A stretch of DNA of 38,427 nt. Source: Asterionella formosa (lineage: Eukaryota). The position numbers and the translations under genes are program-made. Below the pieces are notes generated by a model that was not told where the DNA came from, ran no database searches, and worked only from the letters and a program-made list of their open reading frames with translations. Positions 2,575 through 37,881 of the stretch are shown here, in pieces. The stretch lies in contig NKIB01015073.1 in NCBI GenBank assembly GCA_002256025.1, positions 1 through 38,427 of the forward strand. Direction: 5' to 3'. How positions within the stretch are numbered: position 1 is the stretch's first letter; every line of letters starts with the position of its first letter.

Positions 2575-5185
2575 TCAGGACAATACTTTGAATGATCCAT
2601 TTGATGACTTCATTAAGATTCCTTCGTTTCGTAGATTCTCGACCATGGTAGGAAACTCCTGGAGTCCACAACAGAGCTTATCAGCGATGCGTCGCAAGTC
2701 ATCCAATGTACATTCTGCACCAGAACCAACAATTCGGTATATCTCGTTAATAAAAGCCTTTTTCAACTTTTTGTTGCTTTTCCCGCCTGCTCCACCACGG
2801 GATCTATCTAAGGCACCAAATTCATCCTTATGAACTTCGTCAACCGATCGAGCCATTAATTCTACAACATCAAGCGCATCTTCCTCCAACACATATTCCC
2901 GAAGACAGGCCTTGGCACGTGCTTGGCAGAGACGAATTAAAGCTTCCAATTGTCGAGTGGTGATTGGAACTGTATCCCGTGGATTTCTACCGTCAGCAGG
3001 ATACCGAAGATTCATATAGTACTCCTTAAGAACTGAGGCAGCTCCTTGGGAAAGTCTGGGCTTGCAATACTCACGAGCATAGGAGATATAGTCCCGAACG
3101 AGATCAGCTGGAAGCGGCTCCTTTTGAAATTGAGAGACCCATTGAAGGCGCTCTTTTAGTGGCATTCGGTTCTCGGAGTCGTAGTTCTTTGAAGCCCCAA
3201 CGGTCGGAGCCTTTGACTCCATAGCTACAGTTTTCCCTCGATGATGATTCATAATGTTACTTGACACCAGACGATCTTGATCAATGTCTGCTCGGTCCCT
3301 CAATATGAAAACCAGATCAAACCGAGATAATATGGGAGTAGCCATGTTAAGGTTCTCTGCAACAGTCTTGTTCATGTTGTAGCTGCCGTGTTTCGGGTTT
3401 GCTGCGGCGATTATACTACACCTTGCTGGAAGCGAAGCGACAACTCCAGCTTTCGCGATCGATATCTGCTGCTGTTCCATTGCCTCTAGTAGCCCTTCCT
3501 GATGGCCCATCTTGTCCATCTCATCAATGCAGCAAATCCCTTGATCAGCGAGAACAAGAGCACCAGCTTCTATCCCCGTGTCACCGCCGGCCTCCTTCGT
3601 CATTGTCACAGTCAATCCAGTTGTCGAGCATGTATTCCCTCCTACATATACACTTCGAGCCGCAACTTGAGTTGCTGCCAATAACATCTGACTCTTTCCC
3701 ATTCCTTAATTTTTGGATGAAGGTGGATGAATGAATATGAGTAATATAATCGACGACTCGATTGGCACATGATGTGAACATACCGGGATCTCCTACTATA
3801 AGAATATGTGAATTGCAGCGAATAGAATTTCCTCGATCTGGTGATTGCGAAGATGGAGGAGTCCCACCAAGTAAGCAAAGCAATATTCCTGCTTTGACCA
3901 TATCGTGTCCAATTATTGCGGGACAAAGCGATCGAACTAGTAAATCAAAAGGAAAGGCCCTTCTTTCCATCATTCCAAAAAAACGATGATCTGCATGTGA
4001 CAACTGCGTGATACTATGAAATTGTTGTTGAGTATAAACGACATTTCCTCCACTTGTAGACGCCCCTTGCTGATTCTTTTCGCGTTGGTTGCTCTCTGAC
4101 ATGGTCGTTATCGAGTTTGCTTGTAGGTATAGCTTGTATGTGCTCGTTTCCATTGCCCGCTTTCCAACTTTTCCTTCTGCCACAGCGGAATTTACAGCTT
4201 GCACTATACTCGCCACCATAACAATATCACCAGGACGACACGAATCAACAAGGTCATTTTCAAGCTCTACTTCAATTTGTCGAGGTGTTCTGCCAGCTTG
4301 GGCCGTACTTTCTTCTTGTGCTTCTTGCAACCTGAGTTCTTGAACATTGATATATCGTGCAGTTGGTCGAATCATTGTAAAATTCTTGGCCCGACAATTC
4401 TTGGTAGCGCATCTTGTCGGAATAGAGTACCTCCCGTGATTGAAACTATGAATCGTGATGGCGCCACATTTGGAACATGAAAAATCAGCAGTGACGACTC
4501 TCAATCGCTTTGGTCTCGCTTTCACAACGTGACCTTTTATAGTCAGAAACTTATAAGCCATGCTCGTTCGTACATCCATCATTCGCACTTGAGGACGAAC
4601 ATGGTAGAATCTAATAACCAGTTTACATGCATCTAGAAAGCGGTCTAAACTTGGTCCTGAATTGGCGCGCCGCCAGAGTGTGGCCACTGCCAATGACATG
4701 GCGACTCCTACTGCAGCAAAGCCTTGTTCTGGCTTGTGATATAGAAAGGCCCCAAATGAATATCGACGAATAAAATCGTCCGTAACTGCTTGACCCTGAA
4801 GTTCATAGTGTTGCAGCTCATTCTGGAAATCTTCATGGTGCAGCGGAATGACAACTCTGCCTTCGAGCAGTTTGACACCAGCAGTGCTCAAAACCATTTT
4901 CGAATATGCTTCCAACGAGCTTTCTCGATTTACTTTAATGTGCTGGAACGCATTGTTTTCGTTGGGAGAGTCGAGTGGAAGTTGCTTTTTGAGAAAGAGA
5001 ACGAAGAATGCATGCATTCGCACAATAAAGCGGTAAGTCTGGACTTCAATGTTGATTTTGGTGGCCAACTCGGCTGTAGGACGAACATCGACAAGCTGGC
5101 GATTTTGGGTGCACCATAGGCGTTCAAGGTCGCTTTTTTGAACGCCTGTTAAGTCCGGAGGAAGGTGTGGAGCGAGGCCTGCCAT
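2575..5185 (-). CDS. MCM8: DNA helicase MCM8; exons 5185-3784 and 3704-2575, intron 3783-3705 (79 nt); about 843 aa
   Basis: Splicing GTATGT...AAG restores Walker A 'LIVGDPGMGKSQ'. Also Walker B 'CCIDEMDKM', arginine finger 'SRFD', Zn finger CSKC..C..C, and MCM8-type 'GRTPRQIEVELENDLVDSCRPGD' and 'KTVAENLNM'. Confidence 0.92.
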
Positions 5186-6358: not shown

Positions 6359-8635
6359 ATGCCGGAGCATCCAATCGACAGTAACAACAAGGATAATCCA
6401 GTTCACGGCAACGCTAACCTAGATTTCACTTACTCAGATGACGCCTCTCCACAAAGTTCACCTCGCCTGCGCATGGAGATGTGTGACAGTCGGACGTACT
6501 TTGACGATGAAAGCATCGAAGAAGAGCAAATATTAGGTGATGAAGACGAAATTAAGCTGTCGTCGTCAACTTGCCCTTTGATATCTGTAGGGGCTAGCCC
6601 CTTCATGAACAGTGATGATTTCGCGGATAATTTGTTGGAAACAGATTTTTCTGAATCCGTATTACCGGTTGTTGCGTCTGTAAATATTACACCGCAAGCG
6701 ATCATGCCACAATCCCGCAAGCATGATCTGTTTGTACAGACAAACGAAGACATTTTGGAGAAAGTTTCATCGGATCGATCGCCAAAGCCCATTGGCGTAC
6801 CGCCTCCATTGCGACGAGTTTACTCCTCACCTGACTCCACACTCGCTTACAGTTTGTCGCCAACAATTATAGTAGCACCTAATCGATATGCCAGGATCCC
6901 AAGAGCTGAAATGAATAACATACCTAGAGCAGGAGTTAATGGAATATCGAGAAAAGTTGATCCTTTGGCGGCTACTTATTCCCTCAGTCGACAAATGTCG
7001 CTTCCGGTGACATCACAGGAACGCACACCCTCAATTACGCGAAAAATTCAAAAATTCACAGTAAATCCAGATTTCATCCTCGACAAAGAAAAGTTTCAGA
7101 AGAAAATGGCGCTCAGTGCCAACCACGGGTCGCCGTCAACTCGCAATAGCCCGCAAGGAAGCCATTTTCGAACTGTCGTCACACCTACACACAGACTTCG
7201 TAGAGGATCAAATAGCACCCTTCATGATCAATCTCCTCCAGAATCCCGAAGTGGTACCCCTCGATCACAAAGAGTTGATACTAAGGTGGGTGAATTGGAA
7301 TATAATCATGTAATGGACCAAACGGATAATGCTTATTCGCCGCCGCCCTTGAGTACGCGCCGATTATCGTTGGACGACTCATGGATTTCTCCTGACATAG
7401 CAGCATCGGCCAGGCGTCAACGAGGGCTACAATTTTGGCTCCGAAACGATTCACATTATATGGCGTATGTATCTGCCTTCGCCATATTTGGATCCACTTT
7501 TCGAGTATTTACAGGCAGGTTTTTTGGTTTGGACTGCGAAAATCTTAATGGGATTTCCGATTTTTGGATGTCACTGTCGAAAGGGATTTGCGTGACAACG
7601 TCGGGAGAAACAAGTCAAACAGGTGGGGCCCTGTTTACTGACTTACCAGCAAATATGATCGGGAGCTTTATTATGGGCGTTGTGTCGAATGTTAGACCCG
7701 ATTTATGGCCACCCCTTCCATGGTTTCACAAAGGTCATCCTCTCCAACAATATGAGCCACTACACGTTGGTATCAAAACGGGGTTTTGTGGGTCCCTTAC
7801 AACATTTTCTTCCTGGAATACGCAAATGGTGATCATGATGGATGGAACACATACAGAACTTGGCACTCAAGTTGTCGCTGCCATTGTTGGGTATATTCTC
7901 GGTCTAGTAGCATCCATTGGCTGCTACGTATTCGGAACTCAGGTCTCGATTTGGATAAATCGACATCGATATCCGAACATTGATCCTCGAATGGACAGTG
8001 CGAGCGACGACGATTCTGTTGGTTTGTTGGTGGAAGAAGGCGGCCTTTCGAGTCACGTAATTGAGAGAACATACGGTGACGGGGTTATCGTCTGTCCTGA
8101 CTGTCGCCTGTGTCGACCACTATGCCGCGTATTGACTTTTACGTTCTCGGCAAAATACATTGCTTTTACTTTTTTGGCTGGGATTTTCGTTGCGATGATC
8201 GTTGCAGATGCCATTCATAATATTCCATTCTATAGGACCATGTGGCTTTCTGTCTTGCTGACTCCTCCTGGGGCGATCTTGAGATGGCAGATTTCCAAAT
8301 GGAATGGCCGTTGGTCCCTCATGGGGAGATTCACTTGGCTTCCTTGGGGAACGTTTCTTTGCAATATCAGTGCTAGCATTGTTTCCGTTCTATGTGTCGC
8401 AATCCAATTTCGGTTTTATGGGGATGTCAATTCGTCGTGGCCTGTTGCTATTCTCGGTGCCATTAGGACTGGGTTTGCTGGTAGTTTATCAACGGTGTCC
8501 ACTTTTGTGAAGGAATTTATTGACCTCAACAACATTCATCAACATCACGGGAAAGCTTACAATTATGCATTGATTACAATTTTGACCTCGGCTTTATTAT
8601 GCTTGACCATCTACAGTTCTATTGTGCGATTCTAA
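6359..8635 (+). CDS. FEX: Fluoride exporter FEX (tandem CrcB/Fluc domains) with a long Ser/Pro-rich N-terminal extension
   Basis: Two CrcB signatures, 'GFCGSLTTFSSW' and 'GFAGSLSTVSTF', plus 'LPANMIGSFIMG' and 'PWGTFLCNI'. About 9 TM segments in the C-terminal ~400 aa. Confidence 0.9.
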   Translation: MPEHPIDSNNKDNPVHGNANLDFTYSDDASPQSSPRLRMEMCDSRTYFDDESIEEEQILGDEDEIKLSSSTCPLISVGASPFMNSDDFADNLLETDFSESVLPVVASVNITPQAIMPQSRKHDLFVQTNEDILEKVSSDRSPKPIGVPPPLRRVYSSPDSTLAYSLSPTIIVAPNRYARIPRAEMNNIPRAGVNGISRKVDPLAATYSLSRQMSLPVTSQERTPSITRKIQKFTVNPDFILDKEKFQKKMALSANHGSPSTRNSPQGSHFRTVVTPTHRLRRGSNSTLHDQSPPESRSGTPRSQRVDTKVGELEYNHVMDQTDNAYSPPPLSTRRLSLDDSWISPDIAASARRQRGLQFWLRNDSHYMAYVSAFAIFGSTFRVFTGRFFGLDCENLNGISDFWMSLSKGICVTTSGETSQTGGALFTDLPANMIGSFIMGVVSNVRPDLWPPLPWFHKGHPLQQYEPLHVGIKTGFCGSLTTFSSWNTQMVIMMDGTHTELGTQVVAAIVGYILGLVASIGCYVFGTQVSIWINRHRYPNIDPRMDSASDDDSVGLLVEEGGLSSHVIERTYGDGVIVCPDCRLCRPLCRVLTFTFSAKYIAFTFLAGIFVAMIVADAIHNIPFYRTMWLSVLLTPPGAILRWQISKWNGRWSLMGRFTWLPWGTFLCNISASIVSVLCVAIQFRFYGDVNSSWPVAILGAIRTGFAGSLSTVSTFVKEFIDLNNIHQHHGKAYNYALITILTSALLCLTIYSSIVRF

Positions 8636-11382: not shown

Positions 11383-13569
11383 TCAGTTACCTCTGGTAAT
11401 CACGCTGTTGAAGGCTGCTTGGCTGAGAGTTACCCTTCCTGTACTCTGCTGTCGTTTCTTGCCTTTCTTCTGCTTTTCCAATAGCTTCATTTTTCTCGTA
11501 ACATCGCCGCCACCAACAGACTTGCTTCCTCCAGTGGTAAGGACGTCCTTTCTATAGGGGTTGATTCGCTCACTAGCAATAATTTTGCCACCCGCCTTGG
11601 CTTGAATGACAGTCACAAACTGTTGTCGAGGTAAGACGTCTTGGAGCTTCTTGCAAACCAGACGAGATTGGGCCTGAGCCACGTCTACGTGGCAAACAAA
11701 GGACAGGGGTTCTACGATCTCTTGATTCAGCATTATGTCAACTTTGCTCAGCTTGGCTTCTTGAAATGGTGGATCTGCTTCCGTCGTGTCCAGACTTCCA
11801 TAGCCTGCCGTAATATTCTTCAATTCGTCGTGAAAGTCCGTCACTAACTCACCCCATGGCATCCGTCCTGTAAAAAGCCAATTCTCTTCATCTATGGGTC
11901 TAGATTCCAAACCCACACATCGCTTCCGTGTCATCAAGTCCATAATGCCTCCTGTGTAATCCGTTGGGGCCATGATAGATGCGTTTACCATGGGCTCTTG
12001 TATAGACACTTTCGCGGCACCTGGATCAGGCCATTTGGCCAAGTCCTCAATGATTTCGGTATATGGTTCAGTAAGTTTATTTGTAATGTGTGGGTGGTAT
12101 GTAATGTGATATGGAACTTTTGGAGGTGTCACTATAGCCTCCAATTCATGTTCGTCTTCCAATCGTTGTCTAAAAATCTCCACGTGCAACATGCCTTGGA
12201 AGCCGATACGAAGACCAGGACCTAAGAAAGGACCACCGTCTTCACCAGCTGAAGATCCTGCTGTTTTTGAAACCTCCAAGCCAGGATCATTCAGGGCCAT
12301 TTTTTCTACAGCAACACACAACTCTTCAAAGCCATCTGCTTCTAAAGGATGCACCGATGCATACAGAACCGACTTGGTTTCACCACAAGTGGGAAGTGAA
12401 GGCATGATCATTTTTTTGCCAACGTCTTTATTCATGATGAGTACTGTTCCTGTCCTGGCTTGTCTTGGATCCTTCAGTCCAAATCTAACATAGCCCATCT
12501 GCCCCCGTTTTAGGTGATTCATTCGCAAGGGGGTCGGTACTACAATCCCGATTTCTTGTACAGAATAAGACGAGGAGTCGCTACCAACAATGGAAATCCG
12601 ATCCGTTTCCTTCAGTTCGCCCGACACAATTTGCACAAGGCAGTTCACGCCTCGATTATCGTACCATGAGTCTACCACTTGAGCCCTCATTGTACTTCCA
12701 TCGTCATCTTCCAATATCTTAGGTGGAGGGACTTGTTCACAAACTGCGTCCAAAACGCCCTGAATTCCTAGCCTGTTTCTAGCTGAGGTATGTAGAATAG
12801 TGTCTGGATCATCCCAATTGAGCCATTCGGAGACAGTCAATGCTACATGGATGGGTCGGGCTTCCGCCAAGTCCACTTTAGTGAGTCCGATGAGAAGCTG
12901 TGGTGGATTAGGTAGCGACTTGGCTTTGTGATAAACAGAAAATGTTTGCGCTTGAATGCCTTGTGTCGCATCCAACAGCAATACAGCGCCTTGAATAAAG
13001 GAGAGTGATCTCGAAACCTCCAAACCAAAATCAACATGACCTGGAGTATCTACCATATTTAGCAGAATCAACCCCTCTGGTCCAACTGCCGATGGGTGAG
13101 GATACAGCATCGTCGCTGCTGAAGCTTTGACAGTGATCCCTCTTTCCTGCTCCACTGCCAGCGTATCGAGTGCCTCAATCTTTTCCTTGTTCTTGGCGTC
13201 AACGTGCAACGGGAGATCGAGGGTGCCAGCCGCGGCCTGCCGCGCTAATAGCTGTGCTTCTTTGCCTAGATTTCCAGTCAGCTCCAACACACGAGAGGCA
13301 AGACTTGATTTCCCGTGATCTACGTGTGCAATGAAGCAAAAATTTCGAACGTCTTCTAATGGGATTTTGTCCATGAGGTCCTTGTCCTCGAGAATTGAGA
13401 CCAGACGAGTTTCATGAATTCGAGTTGACAGGAACCGATGATTGCAAAAACTTCGTAGAGGTCGCTTACGGATTAGAGTAATACCGGTAGGCGATTGATG
13501 ACACACATCGTTGCACCGTTTAAGCAGAGCTGAGGGATACTGACGGAGGAAAGAGGAAGTTGCCGTCAT
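11383..13569 (-). CDS. GUF1: Translation factor GUF1/LepA (EF4), probably mitochondrial, divergent
   Basis: 'RNFCFIAHVDHGKSSL', 'EQERGITVKA', 'LNMVDTPGHVDF', 'GFQGMLHVEI', 'LPRQQFVTVIQA' and 'GGDVTRKMKLLEKQKKGK'. The Arg/Ser-rich N-terminus resembles a mitochondrial presequence. Confidence 0.93.
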   Translation of the reverse strand: MTATSSFLRQYPSALLKRCNDVCHQSPTGITLIRKRPLRSFCNHRFLSTRIHETRLVSILEDKDLMDKIPLEDVRNFCFIAHVDHGKSSLASRVLELTGNLGKEAQLLARQAAAGTLDLPLHVDAKNKEKIEALDTLAVEQERGITVKASAATMLYPHPSAVGPEGLILLNMVDTPGHVDFGLEVSRSLSFIQGAVLLLDATQGIQAQTFSVYHKAKSLPNPPQLLIGLTKVDLAEARPIHVALTVSEWLNWDDPDTILHTSARNRLGIQGVLDAVCEQVPPPKILEDDDGSTMRAQVVDSWYDNRGVNCLVQIVSGELKETDRISIVGSDSSSYSVQEIGIVVPTPLRMNHLKRGQMGYVRFGLKDPRQARTGTVLIMNKDVGKKMIMPSLPTCGETKSVLYASVHPLEADGFEELCVAVEKMALNDPGLEVSKTAGSSAGEDGGPFLGPGLRIGFQGMLHVEIFRQRLEDEHELEAIVTPPKVPYHITYHPHITNKLTEPYTEIIEDLAKWPDPGAAKVSIQEPMVNASIMAPTDYTGGIMDLMTRKRCVGLESRPIDEENWLFTGRMPWGELVTDFHDELKNITAGYGSLDTTEADPPFQEAKLSKVDIMLNQEIVEPLSFVCHVDVAQAQSRLVCKKLQDVLPRQQFVTVIQAKAGGKIIASERINPYRKDVLTTGGSKSVGGGDVTRKMKLLEKQKKGKKRQQSTGRVTLSQAAFNSVITRGN

Positions 13570-18779: not shown

Positions 18780-21700
18780 CTAATAACTACCTTGTGGTTG
18801 GAATGATCCAATAGCAGTTGCAACTGGGTGTCCATCCCGACCTGGTGCCGTGCTGATCAATGCATTCGCAGCAATCTTGTCAGCACAGAGCATACGAATA
18901 CGTTCACTTGTTGCTGGCATTCGAAGCTCAAAGTAACCTTCTTCATGATGATCCTTTCGGGCTGCTCTGATAGCATCCTTGAGAGCATAGTACACGCTGG
19001 CGCCGAGAAAGAAAGGTGGTTCGCCAATAGCCTTGCTGCTGTGAACAGCAAATGGATTGGTAGCGTTCTCCAAAAGGGAAACATTGAAGGTTTCAGGAAC
19101 ATCATTAAATGCTGGGATCTTGTATGTTCCTGGACCTGTGGTAAAGACGCGGCCTCGGGGACGAATCCATGTGTGGTCGTCGTCAGCATATACAACCTCT
19201 TCAATCGTGCTCCAACCCATTCCTTGCGTGAACGCTCCTTCGATTTGGCCGATATCTATTGTTGGGTTTATGGACGAACCAACGTCGACAAGCACATCAG
19301 CTCGCGTGCAGCGGTGATTTCCAGTCAACACATCAATTTCCACTTCCGCACAAGCAACACCCTGCGTGAAGTAGTTGAATGCATTCCCTTTCCATGAATT
19401 TTCAGGCATATCATCTGGGAAATCATCAGGTTTCTCCTTTGTCCAGTCGAATCCACAACGTTCGTCGGACAGAGCAAAGAATCCAAGAGCCGAAAGGTCG
19501 ATTCTGTTGAAAAATGCGTCAGTTGCAACCTGACTTAGAGTTGCACCAGGTCCAAGCTTTTCTCGAATGGGATTGATTCTGGAAATAATTTTCCGACAGG
19601 CATCAAGAGTAGCCATTCCATACTGATCAGTTGAAATGGAAGCTGCAGTTGGTTGAGTGTTCGCGACCTTATCCGTGCTTGTATCGTTGATATAAACATC
19701 TTCGATTGGGATACCAAAGGCTTGAGCAGCAACCTGACAGACTTTCGTGTGAAGGCCTTGCCCCATTTCAGTACCTCCGTGACTGACGAGCACTGATCCA
19801 TCGATGTAAAGATGAACTAAAGCACCACCCTGATTCATAAACTTTGCAGTGAATGCGATTCCGAACTTGAGGAAAATTTAGTTGTTAGGGACAAAAGGTT
19901 GCAACATAATTACTCACAAATAGTCTGCATACCTTAGTAGGAACTAGAGAAAGACCACGCTTCACCCACTTGCTTTCAATATTGAACAGTTCAACCTCCT
20001 CCCGTCGTCGCTCGACATTAAGATCACGGAACAAGCGATCCCACATCATGGGGACATTCCACGTTCCGCCTGTCTTTTCTGTAAGGTACATCCCAAATGG
20101 TGTGCACTGCTCTCTTTTGTACATATTACTCCTTCTGATGGAGTCGACAGAAACTTTACATTCTAGTGCAAGATGATCCATAATATGCTCAACAGTCGCA
20201 ATGGCCTGCGGGCCACCAAATCCACGGTAGGCAGTATGCGCTGGTTGGGCTGTTTTGCAAATGTTACCAATAGCACGGAAGTGGGGCCAGAAGTAGCACC
20301 CATCAACATGGAAAAGTGCTCGGTCCATCACGGGTCCAGACAAATCAAAGGCATAACCTCCGTTGCTGTATAAACTCACATCTAGAGCCTGCAATGCAAC
20401 ACTTCCATCATCTAAGATCGTTGCACTTGCTTTGTATTTAGAGACAAACGCATGTCGGGTCCCCGTGATGCTCATGTCCACGTCTCGTGCTAGTGTGAGT
20501 CGTACAGGACGGCAAGTGATCTTTGCGGCAACAGCAGCTGCACATGACGCAAAAGCACTACGAGTCTCTTTTCCCCCAAACCCTCCTCCCATTCTCTTCA
20601 TTCGAACAACCACCTTCGCTGCAGGTGTGCCGGTGGCGGATGCACAATAATTTTGGGTTTTCGTAGGAGCTTGCGTTGAACAATAAACTGTAAGATTTGT
20701 ATCAGACTCAGATGGAACAACCAACGATGAGTTGGTTTCAAGGTAAAAGTGCTCCTGACCGCCGCACATGAAGGACCCTTCAACAGTCACTGTATCACCG
20801 GGTTGAGGATTGTCTGTTAGCATTGCCGAGAGAGAATCAATATATGCAATATCCCCACGCACTAGCGTATGCTGAGCGAAGTCATAGAAGCTACAGGCAG
20901 CGATTGCGTCCTCGATGCTGACAAGAACCTTCTCGTCGGGTTTCCCATACTTCACCTCAATTGCCCGAGCACCCGCCTCTGCCACTTCTAAAGTTTCCCC
21001 TACTACAATCCCAAGGACTTGACCAATGGTAGCAACCTTCTCACCAATTGGAAGGAAGACAAATTCGTCCTTAACAATGGGTCCAAGCTTATTATAACCT
21101 CCAATCTTTTCAAGATCTTTGTAAGTGAATGCTCCAACAACTCCTTCAATGGTAAGGGCGTTTTCGACATCAATTGATTCCAAAATGCCCCCACATTCCG
21201 AAGTAAGAATCAAGACCGCTTGCAATGTGGAGGGGGGAAGTGGAACATCATCTGTGTACAAAGCTTCACCAGTACAATGCAGTGGACCGGACATGTGTGA
21301 AGTGGCCTTGCCAACAGCATGTTCCTTAGCCTTAGCACCAGAAACCGGTTCTTTCATCTTGGGAAGTACTTCATCCTCAAGCCCTTTTACAAACTGCGGA
21401 GCTGGGTATTTCTGAACTCCACGAATCGATGGCTTTTTCGCATCAACAAAGGTTTTCGCAGCCGTCGTTTCGGCTTCAGTAAGTATGGGAACCGGAGGAA
21501 AATCTTGGTCTGGCATTTTTTCAACATCCACTCGAAGCTCATTGATGACGGAAACAAAAAACTTGTGCAGGAAGGACGCCGCCAAGGTCATGCGATATGT
21601 CGCTTGCCCTCCAGGTACATCATATGGTAGCTGCAGCTCTTGTAGAAGTACCTCTCGCGCTTCATCAAATGTCTCCATGCTAAATTTTTTGCCCTCCAGG

Positions 21701-23511
21701 AAGTCAGTTGTCTTTCTTGACATGATCGTCTTTGGAGCCATGCCACCAAAAGCAAAGCTAGCAAAAACAATGGTCCACTTCCCATCTTCCACGGCCAGTT
21801 TAATTTTCATTCCAGCAGTCACAATGCTGATGTCGTCTTCTCGGCGACGGGCTTGTTTGAATGGCTTCAGGTATTCGAAATTAGAACTCAAAACAGGCAC
21901 TTCCACAAACTCGACTATTTCAGTACATTTCAAATCTACCTTTCGGTAACTCAAAAAGAAATCAGATACTGGAACTCGGCGTTGAGAAACATACGGGCCA
22001 TCCTCTCCGAGGGATGAAATGACAATTCGTGCTCCCATGCTTGCAAGCATGGGATTCATATCAGAAATAGGACTTGCAGTTACCAAATTACCACCCAAAC
22101 ATGCAACATTTCGAATTTGAGTAGATGCAAACCAACGAAGCATGTCGCTAATCGGCTTGACAGTTCTGCTAAAAATGGGATCTTCTGACAGAATCTCGCA
22201 TTCATGTTGAATCATACTTAGAGATGTACATGAGCCAATCTCTAGCAAATTTGGTTTTGTTCTAAAACAAAAGAGTGTCTCAATAGACTCCGGCGGGGCA
22301 ACCAATCGAGGGTAAACTGCATGCTTGAATCGAGCTTCTATGCCGACTTCTGTATTTCCAACAACTATCTTACAACCACCTTCTCCAGTTCCACCGTGTT
22401 CTTTGAGTATCCCAAGTAGATCGAGGAGCGTCGAGGGCTTTATCCATGTGCCCGCTGAATGGTATTCTGATCTGTCCACGATTACCAAAGGCTTGGCGAG
22501 TTCGGTGAAAATAACTGAGTCTACATCCATGAGCTCTTTTGGAAACATAAGGTTGGGCTGATCCAACCATCCCTTCTTGATGCTCGCTTTATACTCCTGT
22601 ACCTTATCCAAGGAGGACGAGCAGCACAGTGTTGTAACGGTTCCCAAATCCAGTTTCTTCTCCTCTTCCTTGCCTTCTATATTGCAATCCATCTCACATT
22701 CCTCCCGTTCTGGACATTCACGACATGCGGTCCCGCAGGGACCAGTCGCCAAATTCTCCTCGGCATCAGTGCACAAGGATCGGGCGGCGTCCCAAATTGG
22801 TCGATAACCAGTGCAGCGACAGAGATTGCCATCCAAGTGTTCTTCAAGATGTGCAACGGTGGAATTGTTGGCGAATAGTCCATAAATTGCCACAATAATA
22901 CCAGCTGTGATAAAAACGGTGAGAAACTACGGTATCAGCGAAAAAAATCTCAGGTACATGAGCAAAAATCCAAACTTCCCAAAACTTACGGGTACAAAAG
23001 CCACACTGTGAACCATGCATGTCCACCATTGCCTTCTGAATCGGATGCAGGTTGTCCCCCTTGACAGTCCCAATACCTTCAATCGTCGTGATGTGGCACC
23101 CATCAGCTGCCAAAACTGGCATTAAGCACGCATTGACAGAAATATGCTTGATCTTGTCAGTGTTGAATTCCTTCTTCGAGATCAAAACGGTACAAGCGCC
23201 ACAACCTCCTTCAGCGCATCCCAATTTGGATCCAGTCAGACCCATAACTTCACGAAGGAAGGAAAGGAGAGTCTGGTTAGGACGAGCTTGAGCAGCAAGT
23301 TTATCCGGAACTCTTGTTCCATTAATGTGCAAAATTGCCTTTGTTCTGTATCCTGGACGGAAGTTTGATACAATCGTTTGAGAACAAAAAGGAGATTATA
23401 TGACAAAATGTCTTCAATATTAGTCTCGTTCTAACCTTTTCTCGTCAATGAAGACAGAAGCTCCACATCGCCATTCTCGTAAGAAAGGCTAGGTTTCCCG
23501 TTCGGTGCCAT
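18780..23511 (-). CDS. XDH: Xanthine dehydrogenase/oxidoreductase; exons 23511-23436, 23352-22990, 22904-19933 and 19865-18780; about 1498 aa
   Basis: 2Fe-2S motifs 'GCAEGGCGAC' and 'QCGFCTPG...GNLCRCTGY'. FAD domain 'RWFASTQIRNVACLGGN'. Moco domain 'GGQEHFYLE', 'GGGFGGKETR', 'MDRALFH', 'AYRGFGGPQ', 'HGGTEMGQGL' and 'SSKAIGEPP'. Three GT-AG introns (83, 85 and 67 nt) keep the frame. Confidence 0.96.
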
Positions 23512-29217: not shown

Positions 29218-29345
29218 ATATTAAGTTCTAATGAACAAATAAAACCATATGAAATGGATTCAAACACCATGTTCAACAACAATATTAAGTTCTAATGAAC
29301 AAATAAAACCATATGAAATGGATTCAAACACCATGTTCAACAACA
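29218..29345. repeat. Perfect tandem duplication, 2 x 64 bp
   Basis: 29218-29281 is identical to 29282-29345. Confidence 0.95.
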
Positions 29346-29356
29346 AAGATGAACAT

Positions 29357-32047
29357 TTCTCCGTTATTTGGGATACTGGGGCAACACCCCATAAGCGCAT
29401 ATAAGGGAGATTTTGTTGGAGAGTTATCAATTCCCAAGGCACCATTACACCTGGGAGGGATTGCTTCAGGCCTTGCTGTAATAGAAGGCATAGGCACTGT
29501 CCACTGGACTTTTCTACCTGACGATGGACGTTTGTTGCACCTGCATCTGAATGCATACTATGTTCCTCAGTGTACACAGCGTCTTCTATCACCCCAACAA
29601 ATATTCTCTAAAGAACAAGGTTTTACCGGTCAGTTTTTCATACTGGATGACTATGCCCAGCTAATGATAGATGGTAAACCACCTATAACTATTTACTATG
29701 ACCCAGTCAATGACTTGCCAACAAGTCGAGCAATTCGTTCTGCTACTGCAGGCCAACGAGAGGAGTTCCTATATCTATGCATCACCGAAGACCGCAATCA
29801 AAATTGAACAGAGGCACAGAAGGAGTATCTGCGTTGGCACTACAAACTGGGACATTTGGGCTCTGCTACAATACAGTGGTTATTACGACAACCGTCATTT
29901 GGTAACAATCTCAAGAGTCGAGCAGCTGCCCGTTGCACTTCACCTAAGTGTGCAGCATGTGAGTACGGTAAGGCCCATAGAAAACCTTTAAAAGCCGCAA
30001 TCAGCATTCCTTCGCCTGAGAGGGAGGGAAATGTAAAGTCTGGTGATCTAAATCCAGGCTCAGGAGTGTCTGTGGACCATTTTGAATCCCATGTCCTCGG
30101 ACGACAATATTCTTCGCGAGGAAAATCACAAGATTCTTGCATGTATAAAGGGGGCTGTATTTTTGTGGATCACGCATCAGGCCTTCTTTATGTCCACCAT
30201 CAGGTGGGATTTTCGGCAACCGAAACACTCACTGGAAAGCAGCAATGATTCGAGAATTGGGCTTACAATCACGGTGTTCTTGTTGCATTCTATATGACTG
30301 ATAATGGAACATTCGGCGCTAAGGAGTTTGTTGAAGCAATTATTGCGCGAGGACAACAAGTTAAATACTGTGGAGTTGGTGCACACCACCAGAACGGTGT
30401 TGTTGAAAGAAGCATACGCACTGTATCCAATATGGCACGAGTCATGATGCTACATGCATCTATAAGATGGCCTGAAACTGCTGATGCGACCCTATGGCCT
30501 ATGGCAGTTGATTATGCTGCGCATGTCTATAACCATGTCCCAGGCATACACCAAACAGGTCAGTCACCAATGGATATATTTACTGGATCTCTAGTACCCA
30601 GGCATGGTCTTAAGGATTTACATGTGTGGGGCTGTCCATCCTATGTATTAGATCCAAAGATGCAAAATGGCATGAAATTGCCCAGATGGAAACCAAGATC
30701 TCGGCGTGCTCTGTTTGTGGGAATGTCCCCTAATCACAGTAGCAACGTGCCCCTGGTACTAAACTTGAAGACTGGAAGTATATCACCTCAATTTCATGTG
30801 GTGTTCGATGACTTCTTTTCTACAGTGATGTCCATTCCAGAGGGAGATGACCCCGCAGCACACTGGGAGAATATTTTCAACAAATCACGCTTTCAGGCGT
30901 ATTTTGATGAACATGATTTGCCTACCTTACAGGAGGAATGGACCGAAAACGATGATGCCTACCTAGACAAGAAACGTCATATGGAGGCTAAGGTGTTACC
31001 CACCATTGGTCTACACAGAGATGAGACGCCGTGCGTCTTATCTTCAGGGGGAGTCACCAATGCAGGTGACTATGACAGAAGAAAGAGGGACACCATTGTC
31101 TCCTGCTGGTGTTGCTGTACTTTCGCCCATTGAAATACAGAGTGTACCAGTACGGATTGATGCAGTGGATGCTAACAAGTGGCTGCATAGGCTACCACCC
31201 ACTAGATTGGTACAAGAATCGGTAGTGACCATTCCACCAGGAACAGTAGTGTCACGGGAACCACAAGAGAACATTCCGCAAGGAACAGTAGCGGAGCAAG
31301 AACACGTGGAGATGCTGTCCCAAATGTCTCCTCGCCCACCACAGAGGCGTAGCATCAGAACAAACAGAGTACCGCAACGCTTTACTCCTGGTCTACGTGG
31401 GCAAGACGGTTATCTTGCAGGGTCATTTCTATCTAGTCTAAGTGAGCAGTATCATAGCCTGAGCCAATCAGAATCAGTCCTCGCCTATTTGTCATCTTTA
31501 ATGACCGATCCAATGACTAGATATTTGGAATGTACTAACCCACTTGCTTTCGCTGCGATGACTAAACGATCCGACCCAGACTCGCCAAGATATCACGAAG
31601 CAATGGCAAGCATTGATTCTGAATCATTTAAGGAAGCGATGGTAGCAGAAATAAATGCTCTTACAGCAAAGAATACATGGACTGTAATACTACGGCATTC
31701 ATTTCTGGCAAAAATGTTCTACCAGGAACATGGGCATTTAAGAGGAAGAGATTTCCTGACGGTCGTCTTCGAAAGTGTAAAGCACAGTTTTGTGTCCGTG
31801 GTGATAAGCAAGTCAAAGGCGTTGACTACTTCGAAATGTATGCACCAGTGGTACAATGGTCTACAGTGAGATGCTTACTCATAATGTCGATTGTGTTGGA
31901 CCTAAAAAGAAGACACAACAAATCGACTATAGTAATGCATTCTGTCAAGCAGAAATTGAAGAAGAAGTCTACGTGGAGTTACCTAAAGACTTTGGTGACA
32001 AGCAAGGGCGCGATATGGTTCTTAAACTAAATAAGTCGCTCTATAGT
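29357..32047 (+). pseudogene. pol of the copia element (protease, integrase, partial RT), disrupted
   Basis: Protease 'VIWDTGAT' (GAT at 29372). Integrase HHCC 'WHYKLGH...CAACEYGK' and DDE core 'VSVDH / TDNG / NGVVERSIRT', then 'SPQFHVVFDD'. RT 'TWAFKRKRFPDG..KAQFCVRGDKQ..YAPVV..QIDYSNAF'. Confidence 0.92.
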
Positions 32048-33681
32048 GTGGAACGACAAGCGACGATGTAAGCAATCAAAACGGACCATGGAAGCAATCA
32101 AATCGGAACTTCGACAATTTTGTATCTACGATCACATTCAGTGTTTCACTGTTGTACTCACCGATCCGCTCTAACAAGCGTAACACACGTGATGCGGGAA
32201 CTTACCCTGGAGTCTTTTCGGACAGAATTATTCAGCAAAACATACCTACGCAAGACTCTAAGTCTACGACAACGTTTTTGCACGTACTAATTCCTATTCC
32301 AATATTTTGTCGACTGTTGAAAAAACCGATCGGGTCGACTTTTTGGAAGAGAATTGCTCTACATCTACGGGGTTTCATGACGATTAAAATAGATAGCCGT
32401 GTACCCTATAACGTCAGGAGTTAACTTCTGGAGAGAAGTGGCAGTTATGTATCGTAGATTTTTTGAAAAGCTTCGTAGCCCCTTTTTTGACTATTTTTGC
32501 GGTAGTTACAAATCTATGATACATAACTGCCACTTCTCTCCAGAAATGGGGTCCTTACCATATCTGTATATAGATCATACCCCTAAGTCGCAAAATGACA
32601 TTATCTAAGCTGCATATGCAAAGTGGTCGTATTGGTGAAAGCTAATTTAACCTTTAAGTATTATATTTGCTTGTACTTGATGTGTGGATTGAGGTACATC
32701 ATAAAAATCTTTTGGGAAAAATGGACCTCGCAATTTGTAACTGCAGGGCCGCAACCTTAAAAGCCAATATGCCAAGAGTGGTCCTGCTGATGAGGCAAAA
32801 CGATAACACAAGAATACCCTTGTACTCAACCTATCCAAGTTGCATGGGTGTGGTTCGAAATACTAGAAAAGGTGGGTATTACTGTATGGTATACCAGGAC
32901 ATATTGTAGCTACATACCGGTATGTAGACTACTGACTGAAACCAGTATCTTTTGTGTAGACCTACAGTGGTACAAAATTGAACGCAATTTCTGCACATTT
33001 CTGTGGTGAAAATCATCCACATTTTTCTGGACCGATGCATGGCAACAGCCAAAAAATTCAAATCACCGTAGAAACAAGCAAAAATGGCTCCTGACGGAAC
33101 CGGCCGTTCGGAAAAATGTGGACAAAATCCCTCATCATAGATTTACCTATCGGCACTGAAACTAAACAACGGTATGCTCCACATTTTTCTGTACCAGGTA
33201 CCAGCAGCAGATGCCTGCGTTGTTTAATATCCAACTTCGCACGAGGAAGCGTCAAACGCTAAAAAGTGCTTTATGTTGGGTTTTTTAAACGACTGCACTT
33301 GAAGCCAATACGTATGACTTAGTATGTAGCTAAATTACTATGACACTGCAGCAACTTAGACCAACGTCATCACGTCCCGCTTTGGAGAAGAAGGGATGAC
33401 CCGGACTTGAAGCTGGGCTGGCATCGATCTGATTGGCTGATTCCGGCAACAGTGTGACAAGTTCAAATTTTTGCTGAGCCTGCTCCAAACCAAAGACGAC
33501 ATTCCCTGTAAACTACCCGTGGTACTTTGTACTCTACCGGTACTCAGAACGGTAGACATCTGGTAGTCTTTGTACATGTACTCGGAGTACATGCATGATC
33601 AGCAAACATTTTTGCCTTCCGAATCAGCAGAAAAAAATTCTTTCATATGATGTATTATTATTACCCAAACGACTAGAAACC

Positions 33682-35164
33682 ATGGCCTTTGATATGCCCG
33701 TCGAGGCCGACCGAGTCGACGACCTCGGCCTCTTCACTTTCTTCATACGTGCTCCAATATTTGGAACGATAGCATGGATGCTAGGAGGTCAAGATGCTAA
33801 GAAGCAACAAGAAGAGCAAGAACAAAGGCCCCATAGTGATGCGCCTAAGGAGCATGCTCTCCCACCAGCACAGCTGCAAAAGATGATAGAAACAAACCAG
33901 CAAAGGAAGAAGGGAATAATAAAGAAATTTCCTAGGCTCGTCGGAAGTGATATATCAGATTTTGGAGATTGTGCAATTCAGTTGAATGCAGCGGAATTGG
34001 AACATCATTTTGCGAGCTCAACTATGGAAGACGAGTATGACCTGAAAAGGGCCAACAAGCGCATGAGCTGGTCAGATGAAAGCGGAAAAGACCTAGTGGA
34101 ATACATAGGCGATGAGGTAAGCCCCTCCCCTGTTCGTCTCAGCTTTGACGTTGACAATTTATTCGAAACCTGTGGCTTGCGTGAGTGAATTTTCAATCAA
34201 TCAGCGTCTAGGTTGTTTTCACCTTGGCCCAAGGTTCAAGTTTTCATCGATTCATGCTCAGGCAAATACACTTTCTATTGATATTCCATTGAATATCACT
34301 TAGTTGCCTTCATTGGAACTAAATTGGGTCAGTTCATTGCGTCATTTTTTGCTGAAATGGAATGCTGTACACATAGTCAAGGAATGAGGACGTGAGATTG
34401 CAAAACAGAGTCTGCGATTTTTTTGTGTTGTACGAGCTCGTTTTGTGAGGTTTTTCAACACATATACTTATCACTGTACCGGAGATGTCCGTCCACAACG
34501 AATCGACGCATCACTATTCTGGTTCCTATAGTACCTGGTACCTGTCAGCAGGAAGTGAGACTTGACACCCTTGAGTACCGTGAAATATCTCTCATTTTTT
34601 GTCTGTGATGTTTGCTTATTTCTGGGCGATGGTGTATAACGTCGCAATTCGCCAAGGGGTCACGTTGTCATTGGGTCATTAACATTCTTACTAACATTCT
34701 TGTGTGATTGTCTTGGTATATCAATGGGAAATCAGACATCAACGATGTATGAACCTCAGCGCTCAGCAGAACCAAGATCCTCAGCCATCACCAACGCGAG
34801 GCAGCAAATGCAGGCGAAGCCCCTTATCAAGATAACTCGATCGATTCGCAGTAAAGATGCAACAAAGATTGCGGACACTGCTCGATTCCTTCCCAAAGGA
34901 TTACAGGGAGGTCACGGTGGTTTACTCATGCCTACGAAACCATTTGGTGATGGTCATGTCAGCCCTGACTGGGGGTGGTACATTAACACAACGCCCCCCA
35001 CCCCTGAAATGTATCATGCTTCAAGCAAAGTATGTATCAAGAACCCGTCAAACAACCCTGCACCGCAAACAATCACAAGGCGTGGTCCATCAACCTTGGA
35101 CAGTCCGGCCTTTTCGAAAGGACGCAAGGGCGGAGCGGCACATTGGCCAAGCGTTCCCATTTAG
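33682..35164 (+). CDS. Uncharacterised 287-aa protein with an RVxF-like motif; exons 33682-34116 and 34736-35164, intron 34117-34735 (619 nt)
   Basis: Phase-0 GTAAGC donor, TACTAAC at 34689-34695, and the first downstream AG (CAG, 34733-34735) gives an in-frame join. Motifs 'KRMSWSDESGKDLVEY' and 'SPDWGWYINTTPP'. Confidence 0.7.
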
Positions 35165-35450
35165 TCATGCAAACTGTTGTAATCCCGATTCTTGCAGGCT
35201 ATAGCACGCGCTGTCGTCCTGTCTACTATTACGGTCTCCCCTTTTCGGTGCTTCATTCCGATCTCCTTCGAGGTGGGCTAGTCCACGGAATGCCCAATAT
35301 GCTACGCATTTTACAGGCTACTCACTCAAAGTCAAACGTATAAGTTTATAGTGTTAATGGACGTCCCACTTGTTAATCCCACGTGTTATTTGTTTGTTAT
35401 GGTGTGTGATTATTTATATTCACAGAACAAGGGATCAATACTGTGATTAA

Positions 35451-37820
35451 CTAGAGATCCGGTCCATCGTCGGCTGCGTCGCTGACATTTGGTGGCTTCT
35501 CATCATCCAAGTTCTCTTCCTCGATTTCTTCTTTCTTGTTGCCTTCTGCAACATAATCACCCCACTCATCTGCATGGCGAACTTCAACACCGTATTTGGT
35601 TTCTAATCGCTTCCATAATGCCTTCTTCTTACCACGATATTTCCACACTAGGTAGCGAGCATTGTGTTTGTCGCCGGCGGCCAATGATCCAGGCGCTGCG
35701 TGCTTGTAGTACGCCAAGAGGCGCTTTGTATCGCGTTCAAAGACATGTTCTTCCCAGTAAGATTTGATCATGAAGCCACCGAAGAAGAGAATGGCTACGA
35801 CGATACCCACCCAGTATCGGATAGTAGAGTTGCGAGCAGACTTGAGAGCCTGTACGACTGTTTCAAGTTCGCCCACTAATGAATAATGAATAATACCTGT
35901 GCTCCCGACGCTGAGTTGCAGTGACACTCTTTCACATGCAACGCGTTTCTCTTCGTCATTTGGGTCACTCTTGGTCAAGGGTTGCATGACATCACCCACC
36001 CTGATCCATTCTCCATTTCTGGAACACTTCTGGTAGATTTGAAGTTGAAAGTCCAGGGCCGCTTCTTCCCGCTTTGGAATACCCTTAGCGCCTTCTTGGC
36101 TCTTGATTGCCAGAATCAGCTCCTCGTCTGTCATTGCACCCTTTGCAGCTCGCATTGCAGCACATTCTGCGGCGTTTATTTCAATAGGGAAAGGACCAGC
36201 AGGAACTCTACGATCGAAATCGAAAATGGTCTTAACATCTGTCCACTTTCCCTTGGTGTAGGACAACTTGATCCCAACGGCAGTTGGAGCGACGTCTTGG
36301 ACTCGATGAGCTAAGCAAGCCTTAGGCTTCTTGTTGGCTCCCTCCGTCAGTGCTGGTAAGCGACCATGTGAGACTCCTCCTAATATGGCAGTTCCAAGGG
36401 CGACAGCCTCGGATTTGGTCGAGAAAACAGGGACTTGCTCCCAAGTATCTAGATATTTACGAGCGAATTCCAACTGCTTTTTAAGAGCTTCTTGTTCCTT
36501 GTTGGATCCGTATGATACGAATCCGACTGGACCCTCGATTTCGGGGTAAATCTCATCCAATTTTTCATACAAGGCTCGGAGACAGTTGCCAACTTGCTGT
36601 GAGGGATCTGGAGATAGAATGGACATGTTTGCTAGCACCTTGAAGTCACCGTACACGCACGCTGGGACTTCGGTTTGGACAGTCGACAACTGAGCAGCTG
36701 TGCATTCAACTCCATCCGGAGTCATGCCAACCATGATAATTAACGGATCGTAACTAAAGCTAGTACCATCATTCCTTGATTGATGAGCTTTCGCCAAGGC
36801 TTGGGTGACTTCACTAACCCTTTCCAGAATTGGGTTAACCTGTTTCAGGTCCGGCAACAGAGCACCAGTTAATGCCGCCACGCTTCGTTGAAAAAAAACT
36901 CCACCAGAAATGGTATCCAACCAAGCTTCCATACTAGCATCGTAACAGGCCCATGACGGAAGGGAAACGGCGACAGGATATTCCAAAATGTCATCATCGT
37001 TGCTCGAACTATGATTCATGCGAGCCACTGCCGCTTGAGCGACTGCCACGACCAATCCAGTTGCTTCTTCTGGCAAAACAGTGAGTGCTTTCTTGCTGTC
37101 CGCTAGGCGAACCTTATATACCACTCGGTCAAAATCGTCCCCACAAGGTGTGGAAATTCCGTCCAAAGTTCCGTTTGCAATCTGGACTCCATCCGTTGTG
37201 TCCTCTGAAATCATCGTCGCTTTAGAATCTCTGTCTGTGTCTTGAATTTTATTATTAAATGACTCTCGCTGAGATTCAGGAACGTCAGCAAGCCGTCTCA
37301 CACCCATCAGTTTGTGAGGGGCATAAAGGACGAGGCAATTGTCACCGTCGTCCGCCTGAGTGGCCAAAACATCCGTTCGCAAAGCCTCATAGCCCTTATC
37401 CTTGGTCAAATATTTGCGCAATATTTTGTGAGGAGTTTCACCTTTCCTAAATTTGACTTGGGACTTCAATTTACCCACCAACGAAGGCAGCAAGCCTTGA
37501 TCAGGCTCGGATGGCCTTGGCGGGAAGCTCGCCACAATCGGATCCTTGGCGAAGATATCAATGCCGACCAGCGGCAAATGCTGCTTCGATTTCACTTGCG
37601 ACATGCTTATGTTCTGGTTCTTATCGATCAAGTCAGCACCAAGAGCAGCGATTGAGACAGGAGGCCCACCCACACTACCACCAGGAATACCTTGAGCTTG
37701 TAGCGGAGGTTGCACCGCTTGATGCTGTGCCATGGCGTTCGCTTGGGCCATGACAAGACCACCACCAGCCATGGCCCCTCCGAGGCCTCCGCCTCCTCCA
37801 ACGCTAGTTGCTAATGACAT
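35451..37820 (-). CDS. Degenerate Hsp70-fold protein with a single C-terminal TM helix and a small helical tail domain (about 789 aa)
   Basis: Collinear Hsp70-like remnants 'LVGIDI', 'HKLMGVR', 'LPEEATGLVV', 'VAVSLPSW', 'SEAVALGTAILG' and 'VQDVAPTAVGI'. TM 'YWVGIVVAILFFGGFMI'. Tail 'RLLAYYKHAAP...KYRGKKKALWKRLETKYG'. The first true ATG is at 37820. Confidence 0.75.
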   Translation of the reverse strand: MSLATSVGGGGGLGGAMAGGGLVMAQANAMAQHQAVQPPLQAQGIPGGSVGGPPVSIAALGADLIDKNQNISMSQVKSKQHLPLVGIDIFAKDPIVASFPPRPSEPDQGLLPSLVGKLKSQVKFRKGETPHKILRKYLTKDKGYEALRTDVLATQADDGDNCLVLYAPHKLMGVRRLADVPESQRESFNNKIQDTDRDSKATMISEDTTDGVQIANGTLDGISTPCGDDFDRVVYKVRLADSKKALTVLPEEATGLVVAVAQAAVARMNHSSSNDDDILEYPVAVSLPSWACYDASMEAWLDTISGGVFFQRSVAALTGALLPDLKQVNPILERVSEVTQALAKAHQSRNDGTSFSYDPLIIMVGMTPDGVECTAAQLSTVQTEVPACVYGDFKVLANMSILSPDPSQQVGNCLRALYEKLDEIYPEIEGPVGFVSYGSNKEQEALKKQLEFARKYLDTWEQVPVFSTKSEAVALGTAILGGVSHGRLPALTEGANKKPKACLAHRVQDVAPTAVGIKLSYTKGKWTDVKTIFDFDRRVPAGPFPIEINAAECAAMRAAKGAMTDEELILAIKSQEGAKGIPKREEAALDFQLQIYQKCSRNGEWIRVGDVMQPLTKSDPNDEEKRVACERVSLQLSVGSTGIIHYSLVGELETVVQALKSARNSTIRYWVGIVVAILFFGGFMIKSYWEEHVFERDTKRLLAYYKHAAPGSLAAGDKHNARYLVWKYRGKKKALWKRLETKYGVEVRHADEWGDYVAEGNKKEEIEEENLDDEKPPNVSDAADDGPDL

Positions 37821-37881
37821 CGCGAGAAATGGTATTCCGTAGGCAAAGGGAATAACAAACGAGAGCAAGATACCGAACTAT

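Follow-up and report, generated by a model that had tools for sequence, protein, structure and literature searches.

An apparently undescribed Hsp70 variant of diatoms and Parmales with an eroded nucleotide site and a predicted membrane anchor

A stretch of 38,427 nucleotides from the diatom Asterionella formosa (NCBI GenBank assembly GCA_002256025.1, contig NKIB01015073.1, positions 1 to 38,427; 'the window' below) carries on its reverse strand a gene for an aberrant relative of Hsp70, which we call pseudo-Hsp70. We found that the encoded protein belongs to a conserved family of Hsp70 variants that is real and apparently undescribed, with an unusual set of losses. By computation, the folds of the nucleotide-binding domain (NBD) and of the beta-sandwich part of the substrate-binding domain (SBD-beta) are kept; subdomain IIB and the lid are gone, as are the phosphate loops and the catalytic Lys and Glu. 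From the computed fold, losses and conservation we infer where the protein may be located, how it would cross the membrane and what kind of partner it may have. We lean towards the view that pseudo-Hsp70 is a type II membrane protein of the endoplasmic reticulum (ER) system, acting as a locked, nucleotide-independent scaffold.

Results

The gene is a single open reading frame (ORF):

35451..37820, minus strand: pseudo-Hsp70 gene, single-exon ORF of 789 amino acids (ORF translation; gap-free RNA contigs)

The bounds of the intron-free ORF are exactly 35451-37820, and only one place in the 68-Mb genome was matched by the C-terminal 119 residues (E<=0.01). The stretch was present in 18 RNA runs among 20 listed (15 studies), and RNA contigs from two studies spanned 34734-37797 and 34734-37878 without gaps or joints. 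Because the spliced junction of a neighbouring gene was visible in 4/4 RNA runs examined, these contigs derive from spliced RNA; they are uninformative on strand and expression level. Ten differences between strains fall within the ORF. All seven in the folded part are synonymous, and the remaining three are amino-acid changes, at residues 40, 44 and 70 of the N-terminal arm. The gene is under purifying selection.

An Hsp70 fold with an eroded nucleotide site

The AlphaFold model of the protein (built from 59 sequences) had a pLDDT of 81 and a pTM of 0.76. Its best Foldseek match was BiP-ATP (E 5.3e-15). With VIA-align, residues 74-653 of the model superposed on residues 24-514 of BiP-ATP (Z 26.0, rmsd 3.5, 386 aligned), and the match to DnaK-ATP 4b9q was similar (Z 25.8, rmsd 3.0, 378 aligned); at the head of the list stood Hsp70 and Hsp110 structures in a docked state, with ATP bound or ATP-like. 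When 48,161 chains were searched independently, all top six rows were Hsp70-family structures (Z 20.1-25.7), followed by the actin folds of BeeR (17.1) and MreB (16.7). The actin-like ATPase fold implied by the first-pass annotation of this DNA, which had been made from the letters and their translations, is thus predicted confidently by AlphaFold, Foldseek and VIA-align. Profile comparison by hhalign with 11 Hsp70 pieces of the same genome gave modest support (probability 91.8, E 7.5e-7), and the ESM Atlas leads for the full sequence were weak (0.81-0.82, Hsp70 and DUF5716 clusters). Computationally, these matches establish an Hsp70 ancestry and a predicted fold of actin-like NBD, linker and SBD-beta sandwich. 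No parent subfamily emerged when 13 Hsp70 pieces of the genome were scored on the family profile (-1.1 to 7.0 bits; shuffles up to 2.8).

The features along the protein are as follows:

37662..37820, minus strand: residues 1-53, disordered Gly/Met/Ala/Gln/Pro-rich arm without signal peptide (pLDDT <50)
37581..37661, minus strand: residues 54-80, two short helices (55-60 and 73-78) predicted on the core (pLDDT 54-86 by blocks of ten)
36360..37580, minus strand: residues 81-487, degenerate Hsp70 NBD (subdomains IA, IB and IIA) with an extra helix at 330-349 (VIA-align, DSSP)
36885..36887, minus strand: Arg312, at or one residue off the catalytic Glu position (DnaK E171, Hsc70 E175; motif pattern, helix start)
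36579..36614, minus strand: residues 403-414, short link in place of IIB, which has ~80 residues in Hsp70 (segment alignments, motif spans)
36291..36359, minus strand: residues 488-510, inserted beta-hairpin and interdomain linker strand (DSSP, hhalign segments)
35862..36290, minus strand: residues 511-653, SBD-beta, superposing together with the NBD on ATP-state Hsp70s
36051..36173, minus strand: residues 550-590, three-helix insert in the strand 3-4 loop beside the peptide groove (DSSP)
35766..35816, minus strand: residues 669-685, predicted transmembrane helix with aromatic belts, replacing the lid (hydropathy)
35583..35732, minus strand: residues 697-746, three-helix KYG module (model, hhalign)
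35451..35582, minus strand: residues 747-789, acidic disordered tail ending -GPDL, then stop (family consensus xx[D/E]L)

Conservation was read from two alignments, A1 with 59 related rows and A2 with 32 wider rows, and counts for tail and topology refer to 98 non-redundant full-length members. The landmarks first noted, namely a Gly/Gln/Pro-rich N-terminus without signal peptide, a single transmembrane helix, the KYG module and the -GPDL end, are all present. The protein starts with MSLA in 61/98 members, and Gly/Met-rich starts are similar in Parmales. The substrate-binding beta region had been described as shortened. This holds for its end, where the last strand and the lid are absent (the structural match stops at about residue 655, and the transmembrane helix comes next), but the region has also gained the ~40-residue insert, whose three helices (550-558, 565-575 and 581-590 by DSSP) are present in 32/32 A2 rows. 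The most conserved motif of the family, FDFDRRVPAG, lies in SBD-beta on the face that docks to the NBD in ATP-state Hsp70.

The eroded nucleotide motifs were found as first read: VGID is followed by IFAK, and QRSVAA, GMTPDG and SYGSN stand where EPTAA, DLGGGT and LVGGS would be expected. In DnaK, the Mg ion is held via D8, E171 and D194, and K70 and T11 contact the gamma-phosphate, according to the accessible text of PMC12406271. We assigned equivalent residues from motif order and secondary structure. The D8 equivalent (Asp88) is invariant in A1 (59/59), whereas the equivalent of E171 is Arg in 59/59 A1 and 29/32 A2 rows (Arg312), that of D194 is Gly in 58/59 A1 rows, and that of K70 is Lys in only 2/59. 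In both glycine-rich phosphate loops, bulky residues have taken over; the G12 equivalent, the glycine after the first Asp, is Tyr, Phe or His in 56/59 A1 rows, mostly Tyr or Phe. Of the phosphate-1, phosphate-2 and adenosine motifs with the catalytic residues K70, E171, D194 and T199, only the D8- and D201-type acids remain.

A further loss, beyond what had been noted before, is that of subdomain IIB. Isolated Hsp70 NBDs matched the model at Z 21-23 with only 272-291 of their 374-393 residues aligned (VIA-align). In segment alignments to the cytosolic Hsp70 of the genome, which is numbered like Hsc70, residues 357-380 corresponded to 191-214 (weak alone, E 0.33) and residues 415-487 to 311-383 (E 7e-5), so that 34 residues of pseudo-Hsp70 stand against 96 of the cytosolic Hsp70 between the two segments. 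The span from the phosphate-2 motif to the adenosine strand is 57-83 residues in 32/32 family rows and 123-139 in six Hsp70s of the genome, and by DSSP the chain passes directly from the third IIA strand to the IIA helix. The short span, the segment alignments and this direct passage together lead us to conclude that IIB is missing. In Hsp70, IIB closes the nucleotide cleft and is rotated by exchange factors (accessible text of PMC10825016).

Catalytic death, proposed earlier from the motifs, is therefore better supported than before, with IIB missing and two of the three Mg-site carboxylates and the catalytic Lys lost. We are almost certain that pseudo-Hsp70 does not hydrolyse ATP and, with rather less confidence, expect that it does not bind nucleotide either. 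Arg312 may fill the Mg site beside the retained Asp88 and Glu372.

The interdomain and peptide-binding positions were remodelled as well. R167 serves J-domain docking in DnaK and Q442 has an interface role; the equivalents of R151, R167 and D481 are lost, those of P143 and D148 are invariant in A1, and that of Q442 is kept. In the peptide pocket, the V436 equivalent is Leu or Phe in 58/59 A1 rows, and DnaK V436F is reported as substrate-binding defective in the accessible part of PMC11804706. The model takes a docked shape, because NBD and SBD-beta superpose at once on ATP-state Hsp70s. Quite probably the domains are permanently docked in this ATP-like arrangement, clamped by the conserved FDFDRR loop. 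As the domains would stay docked, the protein would not pass through an allosteric cycle, would escape control by exchange factors and would not dock J domains in the canonical way.

Three points weigh against such a locked and nucleotide-free state. The docked shape may partly reflect an AlphaFold bias; the register of Arg312 is uncertain by one residue (the hhalign offset is 1); and D88, K132, R175 and R312 around the old cleft stay invariant, as do G476 and R487 (E372 nearly so; 59 rows), which could mean a remodelled ligand site. The open cleft might then bind nucleotide or another phosphorylated ligand without hydrolysis and signal across the membrane via the long helix. A conserved acidic loop (216-233, only moderate pLDDT) could fold over the cleft, and Ssz1 offers a precedent for ATP binding without hydrolysis (accessible text of PMC7083937). 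However, the bulky residues in both phosphate loops and the loss of IIB, which Ssz1 retains, make such a sensor improbable, and we continue with a locked, nucleotide-independent protein.

A family of diatoms and Parmales

Of 7997 candidates scored by phmmer, 257 proteins reached E<=0.001, and a search of 1.84 billion representatives yielded 132. The latter count includes a fish immunoglobulin-repeat protein (E 1.5e-4), which we discarded as a false match. The survey of orthologues called for earlier recovered pennate diatoms (Fragilaria crotonensis, Seminavis, Cylindrotheca, Fistulifera, Nitzschia, Mayamaea and Gedaniella), centric diatoms (Thalassiosira profunda and a record whose name breaks off at 'Cosci') and Parmales (Triparma pacifica and scaly parma). 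No named member has a functional name, every named record examined reading 'hypothetical protein'. Because most matches are unnamed and search power falls near 25% identity, the true taxonomic range may be wider; a metagenome scan with the Triparma protein as query found no relative.

Pfam assigned no family to the 789-residue protein or to 59 members, and gave no match to DUF5716/DUF7159 in 29 further proteins; the protein is also not among the 19 PF00012 matches in the genome. Sequence searches of the PDB with the protein and with the alignments gave nothing meaningful and no match below E 1, and no characterised family thus claimed the protein. No published description of the family was found in the open literature, although supplements or subscription journals may list an orthologue by gene number; the main text of PMC13403384 does not mention Hsp70.

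In a quick tree of 33 full-length rows, for which a thorough search was incomplete, the A. formosa protein paired with that of Fragilaria crotonensis, pennates separated from centrics, and Parmales-type rows stood outside the diatoms on long branches. Vertical inheritance in diatoms and Parmales is the best explanation, and we give it, jointly with the type II ER membrane topology discussed below, somewhat better than even chances. Homologues of ~650 residues could have represented a natural form without anchor, but 62/91 stop exactly at one site, and we rejected this form. At 51 metagenome loci, this site showed a phase-2 GT-AG intron in 12, read-through in 31, an unresolved sequence in five and no anchor in three. 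The phase-2 intron lies immediately ahead of the membrane segment and accounts for the short homologues, which are artefacts. The A. formosa gene lacks this intron.

As the named homologues come only from diatoms and Parmales, two silicifying sister groups, a component of the silica wall could be considered. However, there is a homologue in the transcriptome of Triparma pacifica, whose strain we take to be a naked bolidomonad, searches may miss remoter ochrophyte relatives, and the putative ER retrieval tail described below speaks against a silica deposition vesicle. According to the accessible text of PMC10328945, 1,457 gene families have this same distribution, and no silicon transporter or silicanin was found in bolidomonad transcriptomes. 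A silica-specific role is unlikely, and we consider a wall component very improbable indeed.

Orientation in the membrane

The best 19-residue Kyte-Doolittle window is 667-685 (2.03), and the transmembrane helix is the most hydrophobic window in 93/98 members. A hydrophobic N-terminal start was seen in only 2/98, one of them a mis-start, and there is no signal peptide; both calls rest on hydropathy only. In 78/98 members the N side of the helix carries the more positive net charge; the two sides are equal in 10, and the N side is lower in 10. In the model, a single continuous helix (655-708) would span the membrane from side to side.

All 98 members end in DL (51), EL (44) or EF (3), and so do 182/188 with fragments included, a family-wide xEL/xDL motif that had not been recognised in the -GPDL end. 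Among control frames in thioredoxin and calreticulin loci, 10/508 end in EL, DL or EF, nine of the ten having CxxC. BiP of this genome ends in -DDEL, and the accessible text of PMC3503769 reports that DDEL retains proteins in the Phaeodactylum ER. Mainly because a retrieval-like end is conserved after an unconserved acidic tail, we placed the C-terminus in the lumen. With good confidence, pseudo-Hsp70 would be a type II protein of the ER, with a cytosolic Hsp70 part, the KYG module and tail in the lumen, and the xEL/xDL end bringing the protein back to the ER by way of the KDEL receptor.

Three features favour this topology, which the first-pass annotation had proposed: the tail is conserved, net charge differs across the helix, and a signal peptide is absent. 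Several hints are contrary to it. By raw Lys+Arg counts, the C side of the helix exceeds the N side (4.0 vs 2.9), and the -DL end of 51/98 members occurs in none of the 10 control frames ending in EL, DL or EF; the -xPDL/-xQDL variant is thus only a putative KDEL-type signal in diatoms. Glycosylation sequons outnumber expectation on the N side (272 seen vs 146 expected) and fall short of it on the C side (3 vs 17; 59 related rows), and the other KYG carriers that can be named are cytosolic, which makes a luminal KYG copy odd.

The last two hints, from sequons and KYG carriers, would be expected if the topology were reversed, with the Hsp70 part descending from BiP and glycosylated in the lumen and the KYG module in the cytosol. 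Sequon sites 216 and 398 are present in 55/59 and 46/59 A1 rows, and 19 hydrophobic codons precede the ATG in an open frame [37821-37877 (-)]. However, the near absence of hydrophobic starts speaks against a luminal Hsp70 part. We rejected a hidden signal peptide, as there is no Met among the upstream codons and no spliced upstream exon in RNA, and homologues share the same Met start; these codons are probably a pyrimidine-rich 5' untranslated region. The sequons drop to 17/32 and 11/32 in A2, where Asn changes to Asp, Glu or Ser while Ser/Thr is kept, and the pattern looks structural. A conserved disulfide was also rejected, Cys553 and Cys629 not being co-conserved (16/32), and a cytosolic xEL/xDL end would be left without explanation. 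We consider the reverse topology improbable, keeping it in view for the cytosolic KYG carriers, and retain the type II topology.

A reused C-terminal module

Folded alone, the KYG module is confidently predicted to form a three-helix unit (pLDDT 88). Profile and structure searches brought out no clear fold, a result that argues neither for a new fold nor for a lack of relatives: the best solved relative reached Z 4.9, and CUE/UBA rows (Z 3.9-4.2) stood amid unrelated rows up to 4.9, none at Z 5. The module has no Pfam family and gave no ESM Atlas lead, and searches in plasmids and viral contigs returned nothing useful. Homodimer prediction for residues 655-760, which did not use the alignment, scored 0.00 and gave no answer either way.

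With a Parmales-type copy as query, we found the module in DENR/Tma22 of this genome (E 1.2e-4), and a second-round search of the genome gave 27 matches. The carriers include a Nup214-like protein with tandem copies, as well as FG-repeat, kinesin, PDZ, DUF726 and RRM proteins and others. By hhalign, a profile of 13 genome copies matched the KYG module of the family (probability 97.2, E 4.5e-11); it scored 5.2-21.5 bits on 30/30 module-bearing members and at most 2.6 on 320 shuffles. Because of this match, the mobility of the module in this diatom, suspected earlier, is confirmed, and sequence comparison supports KYG as a real mobile domain absent from Pfam.

In DENR/Tma22 [L023:1171-1947 (-)], the module lies between DENR_N and SUI1. 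Several modules each are found in the Nup214/Nup159-like and FG-repeat proteins of loci L024-L038, where 117-residue tandem repeats with KYG modules break the assembly into short contigs; an FG-repeat carrier has a RanBP zinc finger. Loci L040-L046 hold the module in a PDZ protein, a kinesin tail, an RRM/CysS_C protein, a DUF726 protein and a further carrier that is TBC plus rhodanese-like by eye, without Pfam match. At L044, a small protein has a hydrophobic segment directly before its module, the same order as in pseudo-Hsp70.

Neighbouring genes

A convergent neighbour gene on the plus strand has exons at 33595-34116 and 34736-35164 and a GT-AG intron of 619 bases (34117-34735), backed by an identical loose end in four RNA runs. 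The 3' ends of the two genes may overlap, as RNA contigs run through both. The neighbour has no Pfam match; an RMSW-SD motif in its first exon is reminiscent of PP1-docking RVxF motifs.

The other features of the window were identified by eye. Those at 2575-5185, 6359-8635, 11383-13569 and 18780-23245 look ordinary.

2575-5185, minus strand: MCM8/9-type helicase
6359-8635, plus strand: Fluc/FEX-type channel with a long N-terminal extension
11383-13569, minus strand: LepA/EF4 GTPase
18780-23245, minus strand: xanthine dehydrogenase
29313-32030, plus strand: broken pieces of a copia-type retrotransposon with integrase- and reverse-transcriptase-like ORFs

Discussion

Compared with canonical Hsp70s in the ATP-docked state (BiP, DnaK and Hsc70), pseudo-Hsp70 has the same order and relative position of NBD, linker and SBD-beta and, like BiP, a KDEL-like end. 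Unlike them, it has neither IIB nor a lid, its phosphate loops and its catalytic Lys and Glu are gone, and it adds helical inserts, a transmembrane helix and an extra module; identity is 10-18%, below Pfam detection. Hsp110 and Grp170 keep ATP binding and need their helical bundle as exchange factors. Pseudo-Hsp70 resembles Hsp110/Sse1 and Grp170 in its docked conformation and in having inserts in SBD-beta (Z 25.7), but is without an intact nucleotide site and without the helical bundle, and the genome has separate Hsp110- and Grp170-like genes. Ssz1/HSPA14 (Z 20.1-20.7) is likewise lidless and non-hydrolysing, has an SBD-beta that is incomplete without its partner, and holds a segment of that partner as a pseudo-substrate, according to the accessible text of PMC7083937. 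Ssz1 differs in keeping IIB, binding ATP, being soluble and having an undocked linker, whereas pseudo-Hsp70 has a membrane helix and no IIB. Since the features that define Ssz1, canonical Hsp70 and Hsp110 were looked for and not found together, we assign pseudo-Hsp70 to none of them. The bacterial Hsp70-like families DUF5716/DUF7159, to which no member matched in Pfam, are degenerate Hsp70/actin folds that probably reflect parallel decay.

Other atypical Hsp70s occur in the same genome. P0279 [L013:1138-3060 (-)] is lidless, with intact ATPase motifs and a hydrophobic C-terminal anchor, and is likely a tail-anchored active Hsp70. It shares with pseudo-Hsp70 the succession of NBD, lidless SBD-beta and C-terminal hydrophobic helix, but its motifs and IIB are intact, it matches Pfam HSP70 (E 1e-64), it has no KYG module and it is no nearer the family profile than other Hsp70s. 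The 455-residue lidless Hsp70 P0285 is, we presume, the Ssz1-like gene. The Hsp70 at L011 has a presequence-like start (secretory or organelle) yet a cytosolic-type -EEVD end. At L014, L015 and L020, P0284 has a long NBD insert and no SBD, and P0287 and P0286 are NBD-only.

A scaffold or co-chaperone role, as first suggested, is plausible. Ssz1 is the nearest working model: pseudo-Hsp70 may work like it in principle and go further by dropping IIB and being fixed in the membrane. It would then be a rigid adaptor at the ER surface that holds one partner or passes on clients at low affinity, as Ssz1 does for Zuo1 at the ribosome, and we consider this slightly the better bet. If one process had to be named, we would choose the capture or hand-over of proteins at the ER membrane. 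This route is heavily used in diatoms, whose plastid proteins are imported by way of the ER.

In layout, with a cytosolic domain, one helix and a luminal part, pseudo-Hsp70 is like Sed4 and Sec20 of yeast, whose folds are unrelated. Sed4 has an HDEL end, and Sec20 is reportedly sorted by the HDEL system. Such a layout would also suit a structural tether, Sed4- or KASH-like and without a role in protein biogenesis, that links the ER, nuclear envelope or chloroplast ER to the cytoskeleton, nuclear pores or ER exit sites. In the model, the continuous helix would join both sides rigidly; KYG recurs in Nup214-like, FG-repeat/RanBP zinc finger, kinesin and PDZ proteins. The accessible text of PMC2199979 describes Sed4 as a paralogue of Sec12 in the ER membrane that has another task, the binding of partners. 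However, a luminal KYG module would be cut off from the partners of its cytosolic relatives, and no partner was identified. The tail also does not look KASH-like. A tether is unlikely, though less so than a ligand sensor, and we prefer the adaptor.

More speculatively, pseudo-Hsp70 may be an Hsp70 taken out of the nucleotide cycle by deletion of IIB and an Arg of its own in the metal site, with a rigid helix coupling a cytosolic platform to the luminal KYG module. It would then represent a new class of ER receptor or coupler of diatoms and Parmales, possibly for traffic to the ER-enclosed plastid, and KYG a new and widely reused domain. We regard this wider proposal as tentative.

The studied non-canonical Hsp70s Ssz1, Hsp110 and Grp170 keep a complete NBD. 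A conserved family without IIB and lid that is nevertheless predicted to be docked would provide a natural test of an ATP-free lock on Hsp70 allostery. A gene known as 'hypothetical protein' gains a fold and a testable location in tractable algae, and the analysis exposes an unannotated domain common to a translation factor, a nucleoporin-like protein and a kinesin of one genome.

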